Positions 1 to 11,177 of a DNA stretch of 64,000 bases are shown here, one piece after another. Made by a program: the position numbers and the translations under genes. The notes beneath the pieces were generated by a model. That model did not search any database, was not told the origin of the DNA, and was given only the letters and a program-made list of their open reading frames with translations. The stretch is from the NCBI GenBank assembly GCA_017937845.1, contig JAGBCV010000006.1:1-64000 (forward strand), written 5' to 3'. The DNA is from Clostridia bacterium (GTDB lineage Bacteria; Bacillota; Clostridia; Oscillospirales; CAG-272). Positions within the stretch are counted from its first letter, which is position 1; the number at the start of each line of letters is the position of its first letter.

Positions 1-1
1 C

Positions 2-180
2 AACCGCTTCATTCCGCTTTGCGCGGTCCTGCTCGGCGCTCTCATCGGCGTCGCGGCGTTTTATGTTTATCCGTCTATCATCCCGGCGGATAACGTCATC
101 GTGGCATTGCTCATCGGCGCGGCTTCCGGCTGGGCTGCGACGGGTGCGTATGAGACGGGGAAGGGGCTGGGAAAGGAATG
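2..180 (+). CDS. 3' end of a membrane protein gene (start is outside the window)
   Basis: Open frame from the window edge to TGA at 178-180. Hydrophobic C-terminus ...IIPADNVIVALLIGAASGWAATGAYETGKGLGKE. Followed by an intrinsic terminator. Confidence 0.3.
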
Positions 181-188
181 AATAATAT

Positions 189-232: not shown

Positions 233-420
233 GAAATTTAACATTTTTTAGTCAAAAAACGCTGAAAATTGCATAAAATTTAACAAAATCTTTGAATAAT
301 CTGCAATGAAATTCTTGAAAAATAGGAAAAAACATGATAAAATGAAAACGGAGGAAAGCATCTAATAATATCCGTATCATTTTATTTGTCCTCAAATTTA
401 GATGAAACGGAGGGAAGGAG

Positions 421-1023
421 ATGTATTGGAAAATGAAAGAATTTGATATAGCATATGAAAAAGCGGAATTGGTTCTGAAAGAAATGAATTATAAAAAAGA
501 TAGAATGATTCCGACAGCAACTATTATTGACACCGTAGAAAAAATGTTGAAAGTGGATGTTAGGTTTGCGCTTTATGATTTTACCAAACTAAGTTCTGCG
601 ATGCCGGGTAAAAAAATCAACCTTGATGATTATGGCGCAGCAATGGCTGTTGATAACAACAGGGTGAATATCTTACTTAATGAAAATGAAACTCCGGAAA
701 TGCAACGATTTTCTTTAGTTCATGAGTTAGGACATTTAATGACACAAAAAGAGGTTGTTACTCAACCATATCGTGTAAGTACTCATATTGATATGGATAT
801 TACATCGATTCCGAAAGAAATTTTGGAAAATCCGAAGTATAAATTTCTTGTCAATGAGCAGGTTGCGAATATTTTTGCATTGTTGGTTTTAATGCCATAC
901 GAAATGCTTGTTGATGCAATGAAAAAACAGGATTCTTTTGAAGATGTTGCTAAATTCTTTGGAGTCAATGAATGTGCTCTTGACTCAAGGCTTCAGTTGA
1001 AAGATGCTGAAAAGGTGAACTAA
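421..1023 (+). CDS. ImmA/IrrE-family (DUF955) zinc metallopeptidase
   Basis: HEXXH motif in LVHELGHLM typical of ImmA/IrrE peptidases. Strong RBS ggagggaaggag before the ATG. Low-GC region. Confidence 0.65.
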   Translation: MYWKMKEFDIAYEKAELVLKEMNYKKDRMIPTATIIDTVEKMLKVDVRFALYDFTKLSSAMPGKKINLDDYGAAMAVDNNRVNILLNENETPEMQRFSLVHELGHLMTQKEVVTQPYRVSTHIDMDITSIPKEILENPKYKFLVNEQVANIFALLVLMPYEMLVDAMKKQDSFEDVAKFFGVNECALDSRLQLKDAEKVN

Positions 1024-1623
1024 ATGCAGAACCAATCGAAGAAAAAGGATGCATCCAACTTCGCATGTATAGATCAAGAGCAGAAGAGTTCACCAACTGT
1101 TTCTGATGTTCGAGAACATGAAACGGCTTCTGATATTTTTGATAAAGCATTAGAAGTTCAAGAGATTTCATTAGGTGATCCACAATATATTCTTTGGAAA
1201 GATAATGATCGGTTCAATACGATTGATGAACAGATACCAGGTTTAACAGAAAGATCGGAAGAAGCGTATATACAAATTGCCAATGATATTTTGGAAGCAT
1301 CAACCAGTCAGTTAAAAAAACAGAATGATTCGAAAAACGAACTGAAGGAAAGCTTGGTATGGTTTTTTAAGCGATTTATTTTGCTTCAGTATTGGCTTTT
1401 GATTGTACTAATGTTGGTTAGAATTGTTATACCTACTTATTTGTCCGATAATGTGCTTATTACATATATAACATCAGTCTTTGCTGAAACTTTGGGTGCT
1501 ATTATATTGATGGTAAAATATGCGTTTAATTCCGATCAAGAAGTTCAAATATTGCGCAAATTGAATGATGTTATTGCCAACTTTCAAAAGTTTGGAAACG
1601 ATAAGAAGAAAGATAAAAAATAA
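1024..1623 (+). CDS. Hypothetical protein with two C-terminal transmembrane helices
   Basis: Start overlaps the stop of the ImmA-like gene (taaATG). Hydrophobic segments WFFKRFILLQYWLLIVLMLV and ITSVFAETLGAIILMV. Low GC. Confidence 0.5.
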   Translation: MQNQSKKKDASNFACIDQEQKSSPTVSDVREHETASDIFDKALEVQEISLGDPQYILWKDNDRFNTIDEQIPGLTERSEEAYIQIANDILEASTSQLKKQNDSKNELKESLVWFFKRFILLQYWLLIVLMLVRIVIPTYLSDNVLITYITSVFAETLGAIILMVKYAFNSDQEVQILRKLNDVIANFQKFGNDKKKDKK

Positions 1624-1625
1624 AA

Positions 1626-1667
1626 ATATCGAACGAGTTTACTCGTTCGATATTTTTATTTTTTATC
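1626..1667 (+). terminator. Rho-independent terminator
   Basis: Perfect inverted repeat atatcgaacgag-ttta-ctcgttcgatat followed by a T-run. Confidence 0.7.
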
Positions 1668-1672
1668 TTTAA

Positions 1673-1801
1673 AATCATCATAAAAAACAGCTTGGCGGTC
1701 CGGATGGCGAGCTTGCCGCCGCGACCCGCTATCTCCACCAACGATACGCCATGCCCTATGGCGAGATCGTCGGGATCCTGACCGATGTCGGTACAGAAGC
1801 A
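1673..1801 (+). pseudogene. cotJC: Internal fragment of a CotJC-like Mn catalase gene (corresponds to CotJC residues ~27-68)
   Basis: In-frame translation NHHKKQLGGPDGELAAATRYLHQRYAMPYGEIVGILTDVGTE aligns with CotJC YGGADGELAAALRYLNQRYTIPDKVIGLLTDIGTEE. No start codon. The frame is broken immediately after GGTACAGAAG. Confidence 0.6.
1790..1799. repeat. Left copy of the 10-bp direct repeat GGTACAGAAG (putative attL core)
   Basis: An identical 10-mer is at 10448-10457, in the same codon phase of the split catalase gene. Confidence 0.6.
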
Positions 1802-1897
1802 AACTATCGATCCCAAAAAAAGAAAAGCACAGATACACGAGGAATCCTCTGATTTGAAAATTCCTCTATATCTATGCTGTCCGTCTTTTGAGCCAAA

Positions 1898-2269
1898 TTA
1901 TTCGCAGTTTCTTTCTACGAGGTCAACGAAGAATCTCTGCTTTTCTTTTTCGGTCAAGCGTTCATAACCGAATACCAAGATCTTGGTCTGAATTTCATTG
2001 AATGTTTTTTTACCGAGATTGCGGATGTGGATCAGCGTTTCGTTGGAGAGCGCTTCCACAACGTCGCCGATGGTAAAATAGCCCGCTCTTTTCAGCGCAT
2101 TGGTCGCACGAACGGAAAATTCGATGTCGTCGATGTTCGTGTCGCAAGCCTTTTTGGTAAACGCGACAGAAACACGAACCTTCTGACCGATTACCTCGTA
2201 AATGGTGTCAAGAAATCCGTTTTCCTTTGCAGAATTATAAAGTTCAAGCGCAATTTCTTCTTTTCTCAT
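1898..2269 (-). CDS. Stand-alone RNA polymerase alpha-subunit C-terminal-domain-like protein
   Basis: IEFSVRATNALKRAGYFTIGDVVEALSNETLIHIRNLGKKTFNEIQ matches the RpoA alpha-CTD helix-hairpin-helix ([20 protein letters not shown]...VRNLGRKSLEEV). Confidence 0.55.
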   Translation of the reverse strand: MRKEEIALELYNSAKENGFLDTIYEVIGQKVRVSVAFTKKACDTNIDDIEFSVRATNALKRAGYFTIGDVVEALSNETLIHIRNLGKKTFNEIQTKILVFGYERLTEKEKQRFFVDLVERNCE

Positions 2270-2409
2270 ATCGTATCCCTTTCATTTTTACGGAACACAT
2301 TTTCCCGTTTTTATTCTTTCATAAGAATATTTTAGCACATTTTTTGCGTTCTGTCAACAGGCAAAATTTTTAGTAAGGCAAGAATATGCATATATTTTTG
2401 ATTTTTTTG

Positions 2410-2991
2410 TCAATTTCTGCTGGTTTCCTTCAGATACGATGCTTCCAGATCCGCCATATGGAGCATCACCGCAAGAGGCGTACTTTCGTAAGCGCGGCTG
2501 AGTCCGAAATCACCACCCTTGACCGCGGCGTCAAAGGAGCCCATATGATAGCGGATCGCCAAAAGCTCGGGGACCTCAAGTCTGCCGAAGAACCACTGCA
2601 AGATGATACAGCTCTTTTCGCCGTGACCGATGGGGAATTTTTCGTTGATCTCATAGACCTCCTTTTTCACCCATTGACCGCTCGCCTCATCCTTGACGTT
2701 GCGATATCCCTTTTGGTAAAAATTCACCTTGCAAACGTCATGGAAAAGCGCGCAGATGGCGATGCTTTCGTCCGTCACAGGATATTCGGGATAATTTTTC
2801 GCAACGCGCTTCATGCAATCGTAGACGTTCAGCGAATGTTCAAGAAGCCCGCCGGGATAATTTCCGTGAAATTTCGTGCTGGCAGGCGCTTCAAAAAAGT
2901 CGCTCTTTTCAAGCCAATCGAGGACCTTGTCAAGTCCCTCGCGCTTGATATTCGTGTGGCATATTTCGAGAAATCGTTCTTTGTTTGTCAT
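2410..2991 (-). CDS. HD-domain phosphohydrolase family protein
   Basis: H...HD signature (ALFHDVCK) with later His/Asp residues. 193 aa. Confidence 0.65.
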   Translation of the reverse strand: MTNKERFLEICHTNIKREGLDKVLDWLEKSDFFEAPASTKFHGNYPGGLLEHSLNVYDCMKRVAKNYPEYPVTDESIAICALFHDVCKVNFYQKGYRNVKDEASGQWVKKEVYEINEKFPIGHGEKSCIILQWFFGRLEVPELLAIRYHMGSFDAAVKGGDFGLSRAYESTPLAVMLHMADLEASYLKETSRN

Positions 2992-2992
2992 A

Positions 2993-3556
2993 TCACGCCT
3001 CCTTATCCATCGTTACGGTGAGCTGTACGTTTCCGTCAAAATCCTTCCAAAGAAAAACGCCGTCCTCAAGCGTCATATAACCGTGATGGGTGTCATTCTT
3101 GGGAATCGAAACCGAACCGGGGTTCATATAAACGTAATCTTCATGCGATCTGCAATCCGCGATATGGGTATGTCCATGGAGCAAGACCGTCCCTTTTTTC
3201 ATTTTGGGCAGATTATTTTCATTGTATATATGTCCGTGTGTCGCAAAGATCGTGATCTTTCCCTCGTTTATCATCGCGTAATCCGCCATGATGGGAAAAT
3301 CAAGCACCATTTGGTCGACCTCCGCATCGCAATTTCCGCGGACGCAAAGGATATCGTCCTTTTTCGCGTTGAGCAGATCGATCACCGCCTTCGGTGCGTA
3401 TCCGCTCGGAAGGTCGTTGCGCGGCCCGTGATACAAAATATCACCGAGAAGCAAAAGCCTATCCGCGTTTTCTTTTTCGTAGGCATGGAGAAGCTCACGG
3501 CAGAACGTTTCCGAGCCGTGAATATCCGATGCAATCATCCATTTCATTCCAATCAT
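2993..3556 (-). CDS. yfcE: YfcE/MJ0936-family metallophosphoesterase
   Basis: Metallophosphoesterase motifs IASDIHG, GDILYHG, GNCD, THGH, GHTH. 187 aa. Confidence 0.75.
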   Translation of the reverse strand: MIGMKWMIASDIHGSETFCRELLHAYEKENADRLLLLGDILYHGPRNDLPSGYAPKAVIDLLNAKKDDILCVRGNCDAEVDQMVLDFPIMADYAMINEGKITIFATHGHIYNENNLPKMKKGTVLLHGHTHIADCRSHEDYVYMNPGSVSIPKNDTHHGYMTLEDGVFLWKDFDGNVQLTVTMDKEA

Positions 3557-3724
3557 CCTTTCTGATTTATATGATTTATGAGAATATTATAACAAACTTC
3601 TTTCTTTTTGTCAAATTATATCATTTATTATCTTGACAAATTCTTAATTTTTATATAAAATAAATATATGTTTAATCAAACTTTAACAAGATGTTGTAAA
3701 TACAAGAAAGAATGGAATACGGAC

Positions 3725-4570
3725 ATGAATCAAATTCGCATCTTTGCTGATAGCACCTGCGACCTTACCGCAGAGCTTATCAAAAAGTATCAGATCAATA
3801 TCATCCCTCTCAGCATCGTTCTGGACGATAAAAGTTATTTTGACGGCACCGAGGTCACACCCGACGAGATCTATAAATGGGCAGACGCCAATAAGACCAC
3901 GCCGAAGACCGCGGCGGCATCCTATGAGCAGATTTTCGACGCGATGAAAAGCGCCATGGATGCGGGAGAGGATATCATCTTCTTCGGCATTTCGGGCGAT
4001 ATGAGCAGCACCTGCAACGTCGCGCGCTTTGTCGGACGCGAAAACTACGAGCGTCTTTTCGTCATCGACTCCCGCAACCTTTCGACAGGTATCGGACTTC
4101 AGGTCATCAAGGCAGCGGAAATGGCGGCGGCAGGCAAGACCGCAGAAGAGATCGTCGCATATATCAATCAGAAAAAGGGTGACGTTCGCGCAAGCTTCGT
4201 CATCGATACCCTTACATACCTTGCACGCGGCGGACGTTGCACACCCGTCACCGCGCTGATGGCAAATACCTTGAAGCTCCACCCCATGATCGTCGTCAAG
4301 GACGGCAAAATGGGTGTCAGCAAGAAATTCCTCGGCAAGATGGATTTTGCCCTTGCCAAATACGTTGGCGAACTGACAAAGGACCTTTTGCAGGCGGATA
4401 AATCCCGCGTATTCATCACCCATTCCGGTTGCTCTGAGGCAACCATCGCAAAGGTGCGCTCCATGCTCGAAGACCTCGACTATTTCGACGAGATCCTCGT
4501 AACACGCGCAGGCGGCGTTATCTCCAGCCATTGCGGTCCCAATACTCTCGGCGTTCTTTTCTATATGTAA
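3725..4570 (+). CDS. DegV-family fatty-acid-binding protein
   Basis: IRIFADSTCDL N-terminus and overall DegV architecture. Start taken at the internal ATG (MNQIRIF). Confidence 0.8.
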   Translation: MNQIRIFADSTCDLTAELIKKYQINIIPLSIVLDDKSYFDGTEVTPDEIYKWADANKTTPKTAAASYEQIFDAMKSAMDAGEDIIFFGISGDMSSTCNVARFVGRENYERLFVIDSRNLSTGIGLQVIKAAEMAAAGKTAEEIVAYINQKKGDVRASFVIDTLTYLARGGRCTPVTALMANTLKLHPMIVVKDGKMGVSKKFLGKMDFALAKYVGELTKDLLQADKSRVFITHSGCSEATIAKVRSMLEDLDYFDEILVTRAGGVISSHCGPNTLGVLFYM

Positions 4571-4626
4571 GGATCACCCATTCAATTTGCATTCTTTTTT
4601 CATTTTTAATCTCCTATTAAACCTCC

Positions 4627-4662
4627 GGAAAAGCCCCGCGGATAACGCGGGGCTTTTCCTTT
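4627..4662 (+). terminator. Rho-independent terminator after degV
   Basis: aaagccccgcg-gataa-cgcggggcttt followed by a T-run. Confidence 0.7.
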
Positions 4663-4712
4663 TGCCAGGATCACCATGCAAGCGAAAATTGACAGAAATC
4701 ACAAATTTCCCC

Positions 4713-4741
4713 TTGTATGGAAACGATTTTTATGGTATACT
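4713..4741 (+). promoter_or_regulatory. Sigma-A-like promoter (TTGTAT-17-TGgTATACT) upstream of the mannosidase gene
   Basis: -35 ttgtat at 4713-4718, 17-bp spacer, extended -10 tggtatact at 4733-4741. Confidence 0.45.
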
Positions 4742-4778
4742 GAACACATCAATATTTTATCAATGCAGGAGGAATCCC

Positions 4779-7700
4779 ATGAACGCACAATATCGCAAAG
4801 TCAAAAAATATCATGACATCATCAAAAAGCATCGATATTGCAATCAGACTGCTGTCGGCAATATAACAGTATGCCCTTGCGGTTATAAAGAAGGTCACAC
4901 CCCGCCTCCGCTTTCTGATTTTCAGCCCTATACGGTCGGTACCGATTGGGGTAGCGGATTTGATAGCCACGTTTGGTTCCATTTTGAGTTCAAAATTCCC
5001 GAAAACATGAAAAATAAACCCGTGGAACTGAAGGTCGCTTGCGATAAAGAAGGCGGCGTCGGCTCCAATCCGCAGTTTATTTTGTATATCAACGGCAAGA
5101 TCCGCCAAGGTCTTGATATCCGTCATACATCCGTACCGCTCTATGATATGGACGAAACCTATGACGTATACGTTTACGCTTACACCGGCGCGAGGATCCG
5201 CACAGCAAAGCTGTTCGTTGAACTTTATAACGTCAACACCGTCTGCAACGAGTTTTTCTGGGATATCGACGTACCGTTCGACACGCTTGAATTTACCGAC
5301 GAATATTCCATCGAATACGCCGATATTTTGAAATATCTCGATCATGCAGTTTCCATGCTCGACCTTTATGATCTCGGCTCTGACGAATTTTTCGCTTCCA
5401 TAGAAAAAGCGAAAGCATATTTCGACGCAGAATTTTACGGCAAGTACTGTGGAAACGCTAAAACACAGGTCACCGCCATCGGTCATACGCATATCGACTG
5501 CGCTTGGCTTTGGACACTCAAACAGACAAGAGAAAAGGTACAGCGTTCCTTTGCGACCGTGCTTGAGCTGATGAAGCGCTATCCCGAATACAAATTCATG
5601 TCCTCTCAAGCGTTCCTTTATAAAAACATGAAAGAGGAAGCCCCCGAGCTTTACGAGGAGATCAAGGAACGCATCAAAGAGGGACGCTGGGAATGTGAGG
5701 GTGCAATGTGGGTCGAAGCCGATTGCAACCTTTCCTCCGGCGAAAGCCTTGTCCGTCAGGTCATGTACGGCAAACGCTTCTTCAAGGATGAATTTGGTGT
5801 CGATAATCGCGTATTGTGGCTTCCCGACGTATTCGGCTATGCCGCAGCGCTCCCGCAGATCCTCAAAAAGAGCGGTGTCGATTGGTTCGTGACCTCCAAG
5901 ATCAGCTGGAACGACACCAATATGATGCCCTACGATACCTTTGAATGGTACGGCATCGACGGCACCCCCGTCCACACTTACTTCCTCACCGCATCGGATT
6001 ATCAACTCGGCAAAACACCTCCTCGCGGCACAACCTATAACGCGCAGATCACACCCAAAATGGTCGCAGGCACCATCAAGCGCTATCAGAATAAGGACCT
6101 CAGCAACGACGCGCTCATCACCTATGGTTACGGTGACGGCGGTGGCGGCCCGACCGTAGAAAATCTTGAAACCGCACGCCGTACCGCAAAGGGTATCCCC
6201 GGTGTTCCGCAGACCAAGCTGGAATTTGCAGGTGACTTCCTCACCCGTTTGGAAAAGAAGATGGCAGAAGCGAAGCGCGTTCCTGCATGGCATGGCGAGC
6301 TTTATCTCGAATATCACAGAGGTACCTACACCTCCATTTCCAAGAACAAACGCAACAACCGCAAGAGCGAATTTCTCTACATGAACACCGAAACCATCGG
6401 CAGTATGGCAAAAGCGCTCATCGGTATGCCCTTCCCAAAGGAAAAGCTCCACGAGGGCTGGGAATCGCTTCTCACGAACCAGTTCCACGATATCATTCCC
6501 GGCTCGTCCATTCGTGAGGTATACGAGCAGAGCGATATCGACTACGCAAATCTCATGCAGATCGCAAGCACCGAGCTTTCGACCGCAACGGAAGCGATCG
6601 CAAAGGGCATTTCCGCAGGCAGAGGACATGTCATTTTCAACCCGAACCCGTTCGTCGGCAACGGCATCGTGAAGATCGACGGCAAGAGCGCGTACGTCGT
6701 GGGAATCCCCGCCAAGGGCTACGCCGCGGCAGGACATCTCAAGCTCTATAATCGCATCATCATTCAGAATCAGACCGTGGAAACCGACAAGCTCCGCGTT
6801 CGTTTTGATGAAAACTGGCTCATCGAATCCGTTTACGATAAGATCAATGACCGTGAAGTCATTCGCGAGGGCGAAAAAGCCAATGAGATTCGCGTATACG
6901 CTGACCATCCCGACACCTACGACGCATGGGAATGGCAGGAATACTCCCTTGAGGATTACAAGGTCATCACGGACGTCACGAGTGTTGATATCATCGATGA
7001 CGGCGCAAGACGCGGTATCCGCATCACCCGTCCGTTCATGAAATCCACGATCACACAGACCGTTTGGTTCTATGACGATATCGCCAAGATCGACTTTGAA
7101 ACGGTTGCCGATTGGCACAATCAGCACCAGATGGTCAAGGCGGCATTCCCCGTCGATATCAACTCGATGAAAGCGACCTACGATATCCAGTACGGTACGA
7201 TCGAACGCCCGACCCATAAGAACACCAGCTGGGATAACGCAAAATTTGAGGTCTGCGCGCATAAATACGCCGATCTTTCCGAAGGCGGCTATGGCGTTGC
7301 CATTCTGAGCGATTGCAAATACGGCTACGATATCCATGACGGTCTGATGCAGATTTCCCTTTTCAAGACCCCGACCTCCCCGAACGAAGTTGCCGACCAG
7401 GGCGAGATCGTATTCACGTATTCGCTCTGTCCGCACGCAGGCACGCTCGCAGATTCGAATATCCCCGCGCTGGCATATGACCTCAATAACCCCATGTTTG
7501 CCATCAAGGCGACGGGCGTGAACAGTATTCTTCCCGAAGAATTTTCCATGGTGACATCGAGCGCAGAAAACCTCCTCTGCGAAGTCATCAAGGAAGCGGA
7601 AGATTCCGACGCAACGATCCTCCGATTCTATGAATCCAAGAATATGAAGACCACCGCCGAGATCACCCTCGGTATGCAGGCTGAGCATTGCTACCTCTGC

Positions 7701-7799
7701 GACCTCATGGAAAATGAGCTCGAAGAGCTTCCCATCGTCAAAGGCAAGGTAACCGTCAACGCTCATGGCTTTGAAATTTTGACCCTCAAGGTAAAATAA
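4779..7799 (+). CDS. GH38 alpha-mannosidase (cytoplasmic)
   Basis: GH38 N-terminal signature IGHTHIDCAWLW and DxFGY motifs. RBS aggagg 8 nt before ATG 4779. ~1006 aa. Confidence 0.85.
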   Translation: MNAQYRKVKKYHDIIKKHRYCNQTAVGNITVCPCGYKEGHTPPPLSDFQPYTVGTDWGSGFDSHVWFHFEFKIPENMKNKPVELKVACDKEGGVGSNPQFILYINGKIRQGLDIRHTSVPLYDMDETYDVYVYAYTGARIRTAKLFVELYNVNTVCNEFFWDIDVPFDTLEFTDEYSIEYADILKYLDHAVSMLDLYDLGSDEFFASIEKAKAYFDAEFYGKYCGNAKTQVTAIGHTHIDCAWLWTLKQTREKVQRSFATVLELMKRYPEYKFMSSQAFLYKNMKEEAPELYEEIKERIKEGRWECEGAMWVEADCNLSSGESLVRQVMYGKRFFKDEFGVDNRVLWLPDVFGYAAALPQILKKSGVDWFVTSKISWNDTNMMPYDTFEWYGIDGTPVHTYFLTASDYQLGKTPPRGTTYNAQITPKMVAGTIKRYQNKDLSNDALITYGYGDGGGGPTVENLETARRTAKGIPGVPQTKLEFAGDFLTRLEKKMAEAKRVPAWHGELYLEYHRGTYTSISKNKRNNRKSEFLYMNTETIGSMAKALIGMPFPKEKLHEGWESLLTNQFHDIIPGSSIREVYEQSDIDYANLMQIASTELSTATEAIAKGISAGRGHVIFNPNPFVGNGIVKIDGKSAYVVGIPAKGYAAAGHLKLYNRIIIQNQTVETDKLRVRFDENWLIESVYDKINDREVIREGEKANEIRVYADHPDTYDAWEWQEYSLEDYKVITDVTSVDIIDDGARRGIRITRPFMKSTITQTVWFYDDIAKIDFETVADWHNQHQMVKAAFPVDINSMKATYDIQYGTIERPTHKNTSWDNAKFEVCAHKYADLSEGGYGVAILSDCKYGYDIHDGLMQISLFKTPTSPNEVADQGEIVFTYSLCPHAGTLADSNIPALAYDLNNPMFAIKATGVNSILPEEFSMVTSSAENLLCEVIKEAEDSDATILRFYESKNMKTTAEITLGMQAEHCYLCDLMENELEELPIVKGKVTVNAHGFEILTLKVK

Positions 7800-7807
7800 A
7801 ACAGTAC

Positions 7808-7838
7808 AAAAAATGCACCTGCTCGCAGGTGCATTTTT
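7808..7838. terminator. Bidirectional intrinsic terminator between convergent genes
   Basis: aaaaaatgcacctgc-tcg-caggtgcatttttt. Confidence 0.65.
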
Positions 7839-7846
7839 TCATATAC

Positions 7847-8701
7847 TTACATTTTCACGCCGCCGACAAACACATCTGCGTTGCAATCAAAGACCGCATC
7901 TTCACGAATGACCTCGCCCGTGCTGTCAACGGAGATCTTACCCGAGCGCGGATTTTTGATGGAATCCACGTGTCCGATGACGCTTGCTTCCACGTCGGAA
8001 TATTCAAAGGAAAGATCACAACCCTCCATCGTGCAATCGATCAGACGGAGATTTTTGCAATAGCAAAGGGGCTGTGTACCGATGATCTTACAACGAATGA
8101 GCGTCAGATTCTCCGAAAACCAACCGAGATATTCCCCTTTCACGGTGCTATCCGTAACGGTCACGTTTTTCGCGTGCCAAAAAGCGTCCTTGGTGTCAAA
8201 GTTACTGTTTCGGATGGTGAGGTTTTCCATGTACTGAAAGGAGTATTTTCCTTTCATGGAAAGACCGTCGATCTCTACGTTTTTGCTGTCAAGGAAGATA
8301 TATTCCGAGGTGATTTGCGAGTTTTTGATGTTCACACCGTCGCATTTCCAGCCAAATTCAAGAGAGGTGATATCGGAATCCTTGACCGTCATATTCTGAC
8401 ATTCGCGGAGAATTTTAATGCTGTTAACGTGGCAATTTTTAAGCGTACCGTTTTCGTCATACCACATCGCGGCTCTCGCCTTTTCATCAAATTTCGAGTT
8501 CTCGATGAGAAAATTTCTGACGTGCCAAAGCGGATAACGAAGCGAGAACGAGCAGTTTTTGACCTCGATCCCGTTACATTCCTTCAAAACCGATTCTCCG
8601 TCGGCAGGACCTGCAAACGTGCAATCGACGACCTCCGTATCGACCAAATGATAAAGCGAGCGCTCTTCGTCAAACGTTTTATGTATGATTTGATTTTTCA
8701 T
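7847..8701 (-). CDS. Right-handed beta-helix repeat protein (DUF3737-like)
   Basis: Repeated ~22-aa units (NC.F..., N.T..DS.I) typical of parallel beta-helix proteins. 284 aa. Confidence 0.5.
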   Translation of the reverse strand: MKNQIIHKTFDEERSLYHLVDTEVVDCTFAGPADGESVLKECNGIEVKNCSFSLRYPLWHVRNFLIENSKFDEKARAAMWYDENGTLKNCHVNSIKILRECQNMTVKDSDITSLEFGWKCDGVNIKNSQITSEYIFLDSKNVEIDGLSMKGKYSFQYMENLTIRNSNFDTKDAFWHAKNVTVTDSTVKGEYLGWFSENLTLIRCKIIGTQPLCYCKNLRLIDCTMEGCDLSFEYSDVEASVIGHVDSIKNPRSGKISVDSTGEVIREDAVFDCNADVFVGGVKM

Positions 8702-8764
8702 ATATTTACAACGATTCCTTTGCTTAACTTTTTCCTATTAGTCTATCACAAAAATAGGTCAGTG

Positions 8765-10231
8765 TCAATTCTCACACCCAAAAAGCAATGAATCATTTCC
8801 TTTTTTCTCTTGAATCTCATTCCATTTCACTTGATATTCTCGTCCGTTTCGCAAAATAACAAACGAAAATATCTTTTCGGTGTTTTTCAACCGTACCTCT
8901 GCCCGATCTTCATATACCGTCATATCATCTAAAATCTCCCGAAAAAAGCCTTCTTCGGAAATCGAAAGCTGCAATACCTTCTCCATTTCCGAAAGCCGTT
9001 CTTCCCTTTTATAAAAATGCGCCCTTTCCGAAAGATATTCCTCTCTTGAAATATCCCCCAAAAGATAAAGCTCCCGTAATTTTTTCGTGCATAACTCGTT
9101 TCGTTTCGTAAGCTTTGCCCAAAGGAGCGCCATGACCGCTTGCTTTGCCATATCAATTTCATTTTGAACATTCGCAAGCGTAAGCGAAAGCATCTCTGAA
9201 ACGATATCGTTTTTGATCGAAACAGATGCGTGCTTCCCTTGGCATCGCCAAAGATGATAAATGCCGTTTTTTCGTTTTTGCACCCTTGCCGTCAGAATTT
9301 TCCCGCAAATGCCGCATCGAAGCTTTCCCGAAAAGGGATAGACCGTGCTGTGTTTTTCGCGTACGTTCTTCGTTTTTCGTTCCGATAAAAGCGCCTGCGC
9401 CCGTTCAAAGATTTCCCCGGAAACAATGGGCGTGTGGTGATTTTGAATCACGATCAATTCTTCCTCGCCGTGGTTGTATTTCTTCTCATGCGAAAGATAA
9501 TCCGGCGTGATCGTCTTTTTTTGCACGAGATCACCGCAATATTTCTCATTTTTCAGTATCCGCAAAATGACGGAGGGACTCCATGTTTTTGCGCTTTTGG
9601 GGGATATTCCCACGTCGGAAAGATATCTTGCGATCTCGGAAATGCTTCGCTTTTCTTCACAAAACAGCCGAAAAATGTACCGTACTGTTTCCGCGCCGTT
9701 CTCATTTACGGTCATTTCCCCGTTTTTCACGTCATATCCAAGCAAGCTATGCCCAAAGACCACACCGTTTTCCATGCGCCGTTTCTGTCCCCATTTCACA
9801 CGCTCGGAGGTTCTTCTGCTCTCCTCTTGCGCGATGGAGGAAAGAATCGCCAACCGAAGCTCCGCATCGGCTTCTCTCGTATCAATGCCATCATTCAGAA
9901 AACATACGCCAACACCAAGATGTTTCAGCTCTCTCGTATAAGAAATGCTATCCAAAATATTCCGCGCAAATCGTGAAATTTCTTTTGTCAGAATCAGTTC
10001 AAATTTACCGTCGCGGGCATCTCGCATCATGCGCTTGAAGGCTTCCCTTTTTTTCACGTTCGTTCCCGTCGTTCCCTCGTCGGCGTAAATTTCATATAAA
10101 TTCCATTCGGGATTTTTTTCGATATATTCCCCGAAAAAACGCTTTTGACTTTCAAAGGAGCTTGCCTGTTCTCCCCTGTCTGTGGAAACACGGCAATAGG
10201 CGGCGACGTACTTTTTTTCATTCGATATCAT
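8765..10231 (-). CDS. Large serine recombinase (resolvase domain + recombinase domain + zinc ribbon)
   Basis: N-terminal YCRVSTDRGEQ...SFESQ catalytic Ser motif. 488 aa with a central recombinase domain and CGICG...C zinc ribbon. Sized like SpoIVCA/TnpX-type recombinases. Confidence 0.85.
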   Translation of the reverse strand: MISNEKKYVAAYCRVSTDRGEQASSFESQKRFFGEYIEKNPEWNLYEIYADEGTTGTNVKKREAFKRMMRDARDGKFELILTKEISRFARNILDSISYTRELKHLGVGVCFLNDGIDTREADAELRLAILSSIAQEESRRTSERVKWGQKRRMENGVVFGHSLLGYDVKNGEMTVNENGAETVRYIFRLFCEEKRSISEIARYLSDVGISPKSAKTWSPSVILRILKNEKYCGDLVQKKTITPDYLSHEKKYNHGEEELIVIQNHHTPIVSGEIFERAQALLSERKTKNVREKHSTVYPFSGKLRCGICGKILTARVQKRKNGIYHLWRCQGKHASVSIKNDIVSEMLSLTLANVQNEIDMAKQAVMALLWAKLTKRNELCTKKLRELYLLGDISREEYLSERAHFYKREERLSEMEKVLQLSISEEGFFREILDDMTVYEDRAEVRLKNTEKIFSFVILRNGREYQVKWNEIQEKKGNDSLLFGCEN

Positions 10232-10426
10232 CGGTTTGCGTCCTCATTTTTTCGCGCAAAGGTGCCGTAAAGTGCAAAAATTCCTCCTCCGAGAGCAGTT
10301 TTTTCTCCCATAACACCGCAAAAAATGCATACTGAATCCGCCAAAAAAGCAATCTTTCCATGACTTCACCTCCAAAAAAATACTACCTCATTTTATGAAG
10401 GCTTTCGGTTTTTCAGTCCAAAAAAC

Positions 10427-10858
10427 GCCATATTGTTTGCGCTTGTAGGTACAGAAGAACTCGCCCATCTCGAAATGATTGCAGCGATCCTGTATCAGCT
10501 CACGCGCAATCTCACCCCCGAGGAAATCAAAAAAACGGGCTTTGACACCTATTTTGTCGACCATACCGCGGGAATTTATCCTCAATCCGCAGGCGGAACA
10601 CCGTTTACTGCCGCTTATATCGGCATCAAGGGCGACGTTTTCGCCGATTTGAACGAGGATCTGGCGGCAGAACAGAAGGCGCGTGTAACGTATGATAACA
10701 TTCTTCGTCTCGTAGATGACCCCGACGTCCGTGACCCCATCAAATTCCTCCGCCAAAGAGAGATCACTCATTATCAGCGGTTCGGTGATGCACTTCGTAT
10801 CGCGCAGGATCATGCAGACTGCAAGAATTTTTATGCATATAACCCTGCATTTGACTGA
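10427..10858 (+). pseudogene. cotJC: C-terminal segment of the split CotJC-like Mn catalase gene
   Basis: LVGTEELAHLEMIAAILYQLTRNLTPEEIKKTGF...FTAAYIGIKGDVFADLNEDLAAEQKARVTYDNILRLVDDPDVRDPIKFLRQREITHYQRF aligns along its length with CotJC (IGTEEFAHLEMIATMVYKLT...FLREREIVHSMRF). Upstream in-frame sequence is unrelated, with a stop at 10361. Confidence 0.75.
10448..10457. repeat. Right copy of the 10-bp direct repeat GGTACAGAAG (putative attR core)
   Basis: Identical to 1790-1799. Lies in frame at the GTEE codons of the catalase C-terminal segment. Confidence 0.6.
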
Positions 10859-10934
10859 GCGTAAGTAATTTTCCCAAAAATTGACGGCGATTCTCTGTGT
10901 GAGAATCGCCGTTTCTGTATGAAGAAAACTATCA

Positions 10935-11177
10935 CTATTTTCGATATTTATTATAAAAATCAATCATCAATTTTTCAATTACTTCAAAATCAAATGTTGG
11001 AACTGGACGATGATTACTTTTCGACATCCTGCCACCAAGATTATGTCCAGCGGCGGTTAATGTCCAATCATCAAAGTTATCTTTGATGACTAAGCCCATA
11101 TCCTTCCACATACCATAAACCCACTCGGTGCTCATTCCTACCGCTCTACCTACGAAACGTGCTGACATTCTACTCAT
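10935..11177 (-). CDS. Hypothetical small protein (80 aa), low GC
   Basis: Tightly packed with two upstream genes on the same strand. No recognisable domain. Confidence 0.4.
   Translation of the reverse strand: MSRMSARFVGRAVGMSTEWVYGMWKDMGLVIKDNFDDWTLTAAGHNLGGRMSKSNHRPVPTFDFEVIEKLMIDFYNKYRK

Follow-up and report, generated by a model that had tools for sequence, protein, structure and literature searches.

What does a gene for a zinc peptidase of the M78 (ImmA/IrrE) family do when the gene beside it encodes a membrane protein and not a repressor? The question is raised by two adjoining open reading frames (ORFs), ORF1 (421-1023) and ORF2 (1024-1623), near the start of the 64,000-nucleotide (nt) stretch of contig JAGBCV010000006.1 (Clostridia bacterium, assembly GCA_017937845.1), which is called the window here; related loci are denoted by the prefix L. 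A sequence-only reading of the same DNA had considered it unusual for such a peptidase to lack a helix-turn-helix (HTH) partner, and had offered two origins for the pair: the relic of a prophage or conjugative-element immunity region, or a stress or abortive-infection module composed of a peptidase and a membrane effector. The second is favoured by the conserved coupling of the two genes, by their co-variation, and by a remote homology and the same architecture as found in the RosmerTA system of Gordonia phage Kita; the pair is probably an autonomous, prophage-borne toxin-antitoxin (TA) or abortive-infection module of the RosmerTA type, resident in gut Clostridia. The Kita D25-D5 type of RosmerTA is already known; newly seen is an unannotated relative of it in the prophages of uncultured Clostridia.

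Rosmer is an anti-phage defence system made of a zinc-peptidase antitoxin together with a toxin whose function is unknown, in which attempts to transform the rmrA deletion failed, as fits an antitoxin role of its product (Millman et al. 2022). For the Kita representative, RmrA(D25) is annotated with Peptidase_M78 only and RmrT(D5) with 'Transmembrane' only; RmrT alone rapidly depolarises and permeabilises E. coli membranes, RmrA neutralises it partially, and the rmrA/rmrT operon protects against coliphages Bas54 and Bas59 (Ernits et al. 2023, PMC10440598). D25 proteins 'often' carry a small N-terminal HTH (PMC10440598). Kita RmrA, too, is M78-only, so that the lack of an HTH partner looks less out of the ordinary for an M78 peptidase than had been supposed.

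ORF1 and ORF2 are the only long reading frames of the region 421-1623. The TAA stop of ORF1 (1021-1023) is followed directly by the ATG of ORF2 (1024-1026), with a 0-nt spacer; the two codons, which had been taken to overlap, thus abut, in a layout that is nonetheless one of coupling. Both frames stand at the coordinates given earlier, and the ImmA/IrrE-family peptidase that had been read at 421-1023 from a HEXXH motif is confirmed by Pfam (Peptidase_M78, E=4.7e-16). Its zinc site is intact: nt 721-735 encode HELGH and nt 856-858 the third ligand, E146, and H101, E102, H105, and E146 are invariant in 72 homologues. The AlphaFold2 (AF2) model consists of one domain, which is HTH-less (pLDDT 89, pTM 0.88); its nearest PDB folds by Foldseek are CapP (7t5t, 8e-5) and IrrE (3dti, IrrE/PprI, 1.5e-4), CapP 7t5t being the top PDB match by sequence as well as by structure. 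In PADLOC, ORF1 matches capP (2e-12) and RmrA (4e-9), with the peptidase part alone covered; the RmrA models concerned number 11 and are matched at profile positions ~143-263 of 357-400. ORF1 is predicted from these features to be a catalytically competent M78 peptidase and an RmrA-like antitoxin. Specific to its subfamily is the loop STHIDMDITSIP (residues 119-130, nt 775-810), in which S120, H122, I123, I127, and T128 are nearly invariant; it is of low confidence in the AF2 model (pLDDT 61-73), is missing from both CapP and Kita RmrA, and is a candidate for a toxin-contact or regulatory element.

The 199-residue partner had been described as an acidic soluble N-domain followed by two C-terminal transmembrane (TM) helices. 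The helices are borne out by hydropathy and AF2 and the acidity by an isoelectric point of 4.4 over residues 1-72; rather than a folded domain, AF2 shows disorder in this part (pLDDT 49-63, no secondary structure; residues 1-60 disordered in a model with an overall pLDDT of 76.5). Before residue ~60 the alignments (A1-A3) hold zero conserved columns, the first ~70 residues being hypervariable. From there on, the protein is built as a membrane hairpin: a continuous helix (residues 74-135, pLDDT 83-96) ends as TM1 (~112-135) and is followed by TM2 (~142-168), with pLDDT above 90 in the hairpin. In the family alignment, E79, Y82, S93, Q96, L97, and K104 of the juxtamembrane helix are nearly invariant. 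TM2 carries the motif SD.V.I.YI.SVF.ETLG with the membrane-embedded Glu155, and F153, E155, T156, L157, G158, and M163 are invariant or nearly so; in the C-terminal helix, conservation extends over S170, Q172, E173 and on to K189. The charge distribution predicts that both termini lie in the cytoplasm (N-in/C-in). No Pfam family matches ORF2 (FadA, at 0.038, is noise), and 140 members of its family give only scattered sub-threshold matches to membrane proteins in Pfam; PADLOC returns 0 matches at E<=1, hence none to an RmrT model; PHROGs returns only phrog_721 (function unknown, 1.2e-4) and no lysis family; and the PDB, searched by sequence and by Foldseek, yields no informative match, its output being phospholamban, and helical bundles at E>2.

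Profile searches, which the sequence-only reading had proposed for both proteins, place ORF1 in Peptidase_M78 and ORF2 in an unnamed family. A word-indexed protein search had found 5 relatives of ORF2 only; an exhaustive search with a hidden Markov model (HMM) revealed ~206 clusters at 50% identity, 159 of them at E<=1e-10, with lengths of 66-257 residues and a conserved core of juxtamembrane helix, TM hairpin, and C-terminal helix. The loci derived from ORF2 come from metagenome-assembled genomes (Acutalibacteraceae, Lachnospiraceae, and other Clostridia, all of the human or the ruminant gut) as well as IMG/VR and metagenomes, the query of the metagenome scan being a 12-sequence alignment of the family. 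A gene-neighbourhood survey, likewise proposed, had been expected to reveal whether the pairing is conserved. It is: searched from the ORF2 side, 13 independent lineages (the window, L010, L013, L018-L022, L024-L026, L028, L029) have an M78 gene directly upstream, the gaps lying between -26 and +17 nt, and so has L030, where it is cut by the contig end; sampled from the peptidase side, with relatives that span 30-50% identity (50, 43, 34, and 30%), an ORF2-family gene lies immediately downstream in four out of four loci (L031, L032, L033, L035). Because the family comprises so many clusters and the adjacency recurs in at least 17 independent lineages, the pairing is not a matter of chance; it is near-obligate and reciprocal. 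The partners also vary together: the pairwise identities of ORF1 and ORF2 correlate (r=0.75, Mantel p ~6e-4), and a divergent peptidase subtype (AHELAHY) accompanies an MVKFAF variant of ORF2. Against 50,697 records of cultured phages, tblastn with ORF1 and ORF2 gave no match.

In the Kita genome (KU963257, accession via PMC4982280), gp32 is a protein of 178 residues that is M78-only (Pfam 4.6e-18); its gene overlaps that of gp33 (119 residues) by 4 nt, and the two follow the minor tail genes and precede the integrase. From domain content and gene order we infer that they are the YP_009301393 and YP_009301394 of PMC10440598. An alternative assignment of RmrT and RmrA to gp44 and gp45 was rejected, Pfam identifying gp32 as the M78 protein, gp45 as an HTH repressor, and gp44 as a second small HExxH protein. 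Both partners of the pair show remote homology to their Kita counterparts. The ORF1 family aligns with gp32 in hhalign at 95% (E=3.8e-8), and the ORF2 family (alignment A3) with a gp33 profile (A5) at 92.9% (E=3.8e-7) over 68 columns, which correspond to TM1-loop-TM2 and include the common motif SD.V.I.(Y/W)I(S/T)..VE.LG. As gp33 has three detectable relatives only, this profile consists of gp33 and two of them; the ORF2-family HMM scores 13, 25, and 28 bits on its three proteins, above all 1000 global and all 1000 local (12-residue-window) shuffles.

The likeness extends to the layout as a whole. As in the Kita system, an M78 peptidase with an intact HEXXH...E site is adjoined by a co-oriented, coupled partner that is homologous, remotely, to RmrT(D5) and has a C-terminal membrane region; both systems are borne by temperate phages and sit downstream of tail or lysis genes, near an integrase or attachment site; in both, an HTH-less, M78-only peptidase of ~180-200 residues comes first and a small toxin gene overlaps or abuts it; and in both the toxin, a putative one here, begins with an acidic, disordered stretch and ends in a two-helix membrane region with SD...VE.LG. 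In contrast to gp33, ORF2 is 80 residues longer, with a long N-terminal extension and a conserved juxtamembrane helix, neither of which gp33 has; the ORF1 subfamily is set apart by its conserved loop, and the host phylum is Actinobacteria for Kita and Clostridia here. Toxicity, neutralisation, and defence have been shown for the Kita system and are predicted for the ORF1/ORF2 family.

Several observations weigh against an assignment to RosmerTA. The resemblance of ORF2 to gp33 is remote: it amounts to 18% identity over 68 columns, lies in membrane helices, whose composition can inflate scores, and depends on a profile of three sequences. No RmrT model in PADLOC matches ORF2, and ORF1 scores higher against capP than against the RmrA models. 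The long N-terminal extension of ORF2 and its conserved amphipathic C-terminal helix, the latter absent from gp33, set the two proteins apart. Three loci (L019, L032, L020) lie outside recognisable phage contexts. The invariance of the catalytic site suggests that proteolysis matters, which neutralisation by binding does not explain. Finally, L023 (9932-10420) encodes a full-length orphan homologue of ORF2, in an AT-rich island and without an adjacent peptidase; such an orphan is hard to reconcile with constitutive toxicity, unless the protein is made only late in lytic growth, which is possible. On one side it has a late-regulator-like ORF and on the other the terminase genes, in a phage that is GC-rich. 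A second locus without peptidase, the IMG/VR contig L017 (10013-10189), retains a 58-residue remnant that comprises TM2 and the C-terminal helix and sits between an endolysin and a serine integrase.

The pair forms an expression unit of its own, whose signals are listed in Table 1. The promoter block TTGAAAAAT...ATATGrTAAwAT is common to the upstream regions of the window, L010, and L021, and partly to that of L020; the Shine-Dalgarno (SD) region AAACGGAGGGAAGGAG is nearly identical in L010, L021, and L013. The low GC content that had been noted, ~33% and far below the surroundings, is confirmed (0.33, with 0.30-0.36 along the pair, against 0.45-0.55 around it), as are the terminators on either side, at 190-223 and 1618-1661; an Rfam search of positions 1-2500 gave just sub-threshold matches on the terminator hairpin, which are terminator artefacts. 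The same shift in composition is seen in 12 of 13 loci (0.29-0.35 in the pair, 0.40-0.47 in the flanks). The AT-richness of the pair relative to its flanks and the part of the promoter that travels along with it are typical of a mobile moron.

The niche of the cassette here is the end of a prophage. Contigs L001 and L002, which are identical to the window, extend it upstream by 4.3 kb and encode there a BppU_N tail protein (1135 residues, cut), a TM protein of 113 residues, and a protein of 91 residues with a sub-threshold match to Phage_holin_5_2 (1.7e-5). Downstream, the host gene cotJC resumes ~20-30 nt beyond the cassette terminator; it follows that the prophage occupies cotJC, at about codon 26 (KIII|SQLGG, window ~1661-1690), and that its genes end with the pair. 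The prophage origin suspected earlier is correct in this respect, while the prophage end is intact rather than a relic. In L010, a related prophage uses this cotJC codon as well (10702-10870) and likewise ends with the pair, its peptidase being 71% identical. The cassette end faces the 5' part of the host gene there (cotJA-cotJB-cotJC') and the 3' part in the window; the two prophages apparently lie in opposite orientation. Elsewhere, the pair directly follows an endolysin (L024, L026, L027) or an endolysin and two small genes (L035), lies between immunity genes and a serine integrase (L013) or has a tyrosine integrase on one side and a CI-type (HTH+S24) repressor on the other (L031), or precedes the terminase (L033). 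It is usually found beside the attachment site, after the endolysin or holin genes or next to the integrase; L026 and L027 carry an identical pair behind two different endolysins.

In two of the loci outside recognisable phage contexts, L019 (1017-8645) and L032 (1-7531), the cassette follows three very large ORFs (~650-1000 residues) without a PHROG match. The large ORFs of L032 contain VWA domains, and the flanks of both loci are described as large VWA-type proteins; that of L020 is FtsK-like. The cassette may also ride on a different kind of element in L019 and L032.

The toxicity, neutralisation, trigger, and defence phenotype of the pair are modelled here on the Kita and Millman systems. 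Both proteins would be made in the lysogen from their own promoter, on the same transcript, the cassette being a moron that a temperate phage carries at its attachment-site end. ORF2 would be the toxin, an N-in/C-in membrane hairpin that, if un-neutralised, would oligomerise via TM2 (Glu155-Thr-Leu-Gly) and leave the membrane depolarised or permeabilised; ORF1 would be the antitoxin that keeps it harmless in the lysogen, and the termini of ORF2, predicted to be cytoplasmic, are within its reach for binding or cleavage. A second phage that infects the cell, or some other insult, would inactivate or outcompete ORF1 and free the toxin, whereupon the infection would be aborted and the cell killed or arrested; stabilisation of the prophage is possible as a secondary effect. 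It is conceivable, though rather doubtful, that ORF1 is an enzymatic antitoxin, which constantly clips the cytoplasmic part of ORF2 (its N-terminal region or juxtamembrane helix), phages being sensed by the inhibition or saturation of the protease. This would explain why an 'antitoxin' has an invariant active site, and the hypervariable N-terminus of ORF2 would be a fast-evolving bait or specificity determinant; if true, Rosmer-type pairs would represent a protease-guard mechanism distinct from the binding-type neutralisation of type II TA systems.

The reverse relationship, in which ORF1 acts on a cue such as DNA damage or infection and cuts the N-terminal region or juxtamembrane helix of a pro-toxin, whose hairpin then forms pores, is unlikely. 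To our knowledge, every M78 relative characterised so far is a protease that is activated by a signal and cuts, site-specifically, a protein encoded by the gene next to it (ImmA/ImmR, IrrE/DdrO, CapP/CapH), and this precedent, the choice of CapP as the best structural match of ORF1, the invariance of its catalytic residues, and a substrate with termini predicted to be cytoplasmic and accessible and with a conserved helix before TM1 all speak for activation by cleavage. In Kita, however, the toxin is toxic alone and the peptidase lowers its toxicity, and in Rosmer the loss of rmrA is not tolerated; ORF1 moreover consists of the protease domain only and lacks the sensor domains that IrrE and CapP have, and the L023 orphan and the L017 TM2-plus-tail remnant exist without a peptidase.

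It is quite improbable that the pair is an accessory of the phage life cycle, with ORF2 as a holin- or antiholin-like lysis-timing factor or as a superinfection-exclusion protein that blocks DNA entry, and ORF1 tuning its level. Holin or endolysin genes immediately precede the cassette in the window, L010, L017, L021, L024, L026, L027, and L035, and its place between integrase and repressor in L031 is the classical position of superinfection exclusion in Firmicutes phages. Class II holins are N-in/C-in proteins with two TM helices and a charged C-terminus, a topology that ORF2 fits, but it has 199 residues, its own promoter and terminators, and variable positions, and matches no holin family in Pfam or PHROGs. 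A terminator separates the lysis genes from the cassette, whose promoter and GC content are its own; the position varies, from before the terminase (L033, L023) to next to the integrase (L013); no lysis family in PHROGs is matched; and the obligatory peptidase partner and the match to a validated TA toxin would be left unexplained. Very improbable, lastly, is a remnant of an immunity region, in which ORF1 is an ImmA-type anti-repressor, its XRE-family partner is lost or elsewhere, and ORF2 rides along as an unrelated passenger: ImmA/ImmR is the setting in which M78 is best known, and the pair lies near lysogeny genes in L013 and L031, but no HTH gene adjoins it in any of the at least 17 lineages in which it is kept with its own promoter and terminators and in varied prophage positions, it follows tail or lysis genes in the window, L010, L026, L027, and L035, the L031 repressor has an S24 autoprotease domain of its own, the immunity region of L013 holds a separate M78 protein, as Kita holds gp44 beside the repressor gp45, and the way in which ORF1 is tightly coupled to ORF2 and varies with it speaks against a passenger.

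The absence of an HTH gene reported earlier is confirmed for the first 4 kb of the window and for the 4.3 kb upstream of it in L001/L002, where no XRE or HTH gene is found; nor does an adjacent XRE-family HTH repressor stand beside the pair in the window, L001, or any related locus. The immunity-region M78 protein of the L013 phage has 139 residues (8683-9102) and is separate from the toxin-linked peptidase; in Kita (L036), the HExxH protein gp44 has 138 residues (10744-11157) and is separate from gp32. One phage can thus carry two M78-type proteases with apparently different jobs.

With CapP/CapH, ImmA/ImmR of ICEBs1, and IrrE/DdrO of Deinococcus, ORF1 shares the M78 fold and the HEXXH...E zinc site; those proteases, however, act on an adjacent XRE-family repressor, whereas the partner of ORF1 is a membrane protein, and IrrE and CapP have extra sensor domains where ORF1 is the bare protease domain. 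The RosmerTA systems modelled in PADLOC (Millman et al. 2022) likewise combine a zinc-peptidase antitoxin with an adjacent toxin of unknown fold, but their RmrA has 360-400 residues with a long N-terminal part; this full-length architecture is absent from ORF1, which has 200 residues, no HTH in Pfam, and a single AF2 domain. Toxins from the D5 cluster of Kita RmrT also pair with PanA, as the 'Panacea : D5' pairs of NetFlax (PMC10440598). Compared via the tables of that paper only, PanA-PanT pairs differ in the antitoxin domain, which is DUF4065/Panacea and not M78, and offer a likeness in the membrane-depolarising PanT(D11) of B. choladocola, which also has a short helix before its TM region (PMC10440598).

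The pair links an unnamed membrane-protein family of gut Clostridia prophages (~200 clusters) to Kita RosmerTA, the one experimentally studied pair of an M78 peptidase and a membrane toxin, and would extend the RosmerTA type of defence to a new phylum. PADLOC has no model for ORF2, and current defence finders would therefore not call the locus. For the specialist this is a plausible and expected extension of RosmerTA and not a new principle; the co-varying pairs, with their invariant protease site, membrane-embedded Glu, and hypervariable N-terminus, form a useful set for the question of a protease as antitoxin.

Table 1. Features at the prophage end that carries the ORF1/ORF2 cassette (positions in the window).
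Feature	Position	Strand	Basis
3' end of the gene for the prophage's 91-residue holin-like membrane protein; last phage gene before the cassette	1-185	+	identical contigs L001/L002
Terminator-like hairpin closing the upstream phage operon	190-223	+	14-bp stem, then T-run
Cassette promoter, sigma-70 type: TTGAAA, 17 nt, TAAAAT, extended -10 TG	315-343	+	10/12 consensus positions
SD region AAACGGAGGGAAGGAG, immediately 5' of the ORF1 ATG	405-420	+	read from sequence
ORF1, 200-residue single-domain M78 (ImmA/IrrE/CapP-fold) zinc peptidase without HTH	421-1023	+	Pfam, AF2, Foldseek, hhalign
ORF2 residues 1-72: acidic disordered N-terminal region, highly variable in length and sequence, predicted cytoplasmic	1024-1239	+	AF2, pI, alignments
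ORF2 residues 73-111: conserved amphipathic juxtamembrane helix (SE..Y..IA..I...S..QL..QN.SK..LK)	1240-1356	+	AF2, alignment
ORF2 residues 112-167: transmembrane hairpin of TM1, 6-residue loop, and TM2; predicted pore-forming core	1357-1524	+	hydropathy, AF2, hhalign
ORF2 residues 168-199 and stop: conserved amphipathic C-terminal helix with Lys-rich tail, predicted cytoplasmic	1525-1623	+	AF2, alignments, charge
Strong bidirectional terminator hairpin, up to 20 bp, at the cassette end	1618-1661		hairpin
Fragment of host cotJC (Mn-catalase family); prophage/chromosome junction	1681-1799	+	Pfam Mn_catalase positions 28-65, E=5.5e-8

The leader of the cassette contains a second SD-like motif, AAACGGAGG(A/G)AAG (346-358), which lies ~60 nt upstream of the real site at 405-417 and adjoins a short inverted repeat, ACGGA...TCCGT; a leader structure and the remnant of a duplication are both possible readings.

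The host gene, which encodes a sporulation coat protein, is interrupted a second time, by an element of 8.66 kb (1790-10457) that divides the remainder of cotJC into parts at 1681-1799 and 10448-10858 (+ strand). A 10-bp direct repeat, GGTACAGAAG, marks the two ends of the element; the window contains just two copies of it, with none expected by chance. At its right end lies a gene for a large serine recombinase (8768-10231, - strand); the rest of its cargo is non-phage-looking and includes an RNA_pol_A_CTD-like protein, HD, metallophosphoesterase, and DegV proteins, a GH38 mannosidase, and DUF3737. The first of these (1898-2269, - strand) is a stand-alone protein of 123 residues, formed mostly by a helix-hairpin-helix like that of the RNA polymerase alpha C-terminal domain (Pfam 3e-17), and part of PglW is matched weakly in PADLOC (3.6e-6). 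As a possible DNA-binding partner of the pair this protein was rejected, for its gene belongs to the second insertion, on the far side of the cotJC fragment. A literature search on cotJC as a target of intervening elements yielded nothing direct. The element resembles the skin-, SPbeta-, and gin-type intervening elements of sporulation genes, and joining its two GGTACAGAAG copies restores the cotJC reading ...LTDVGTE|ELAHLEMI...

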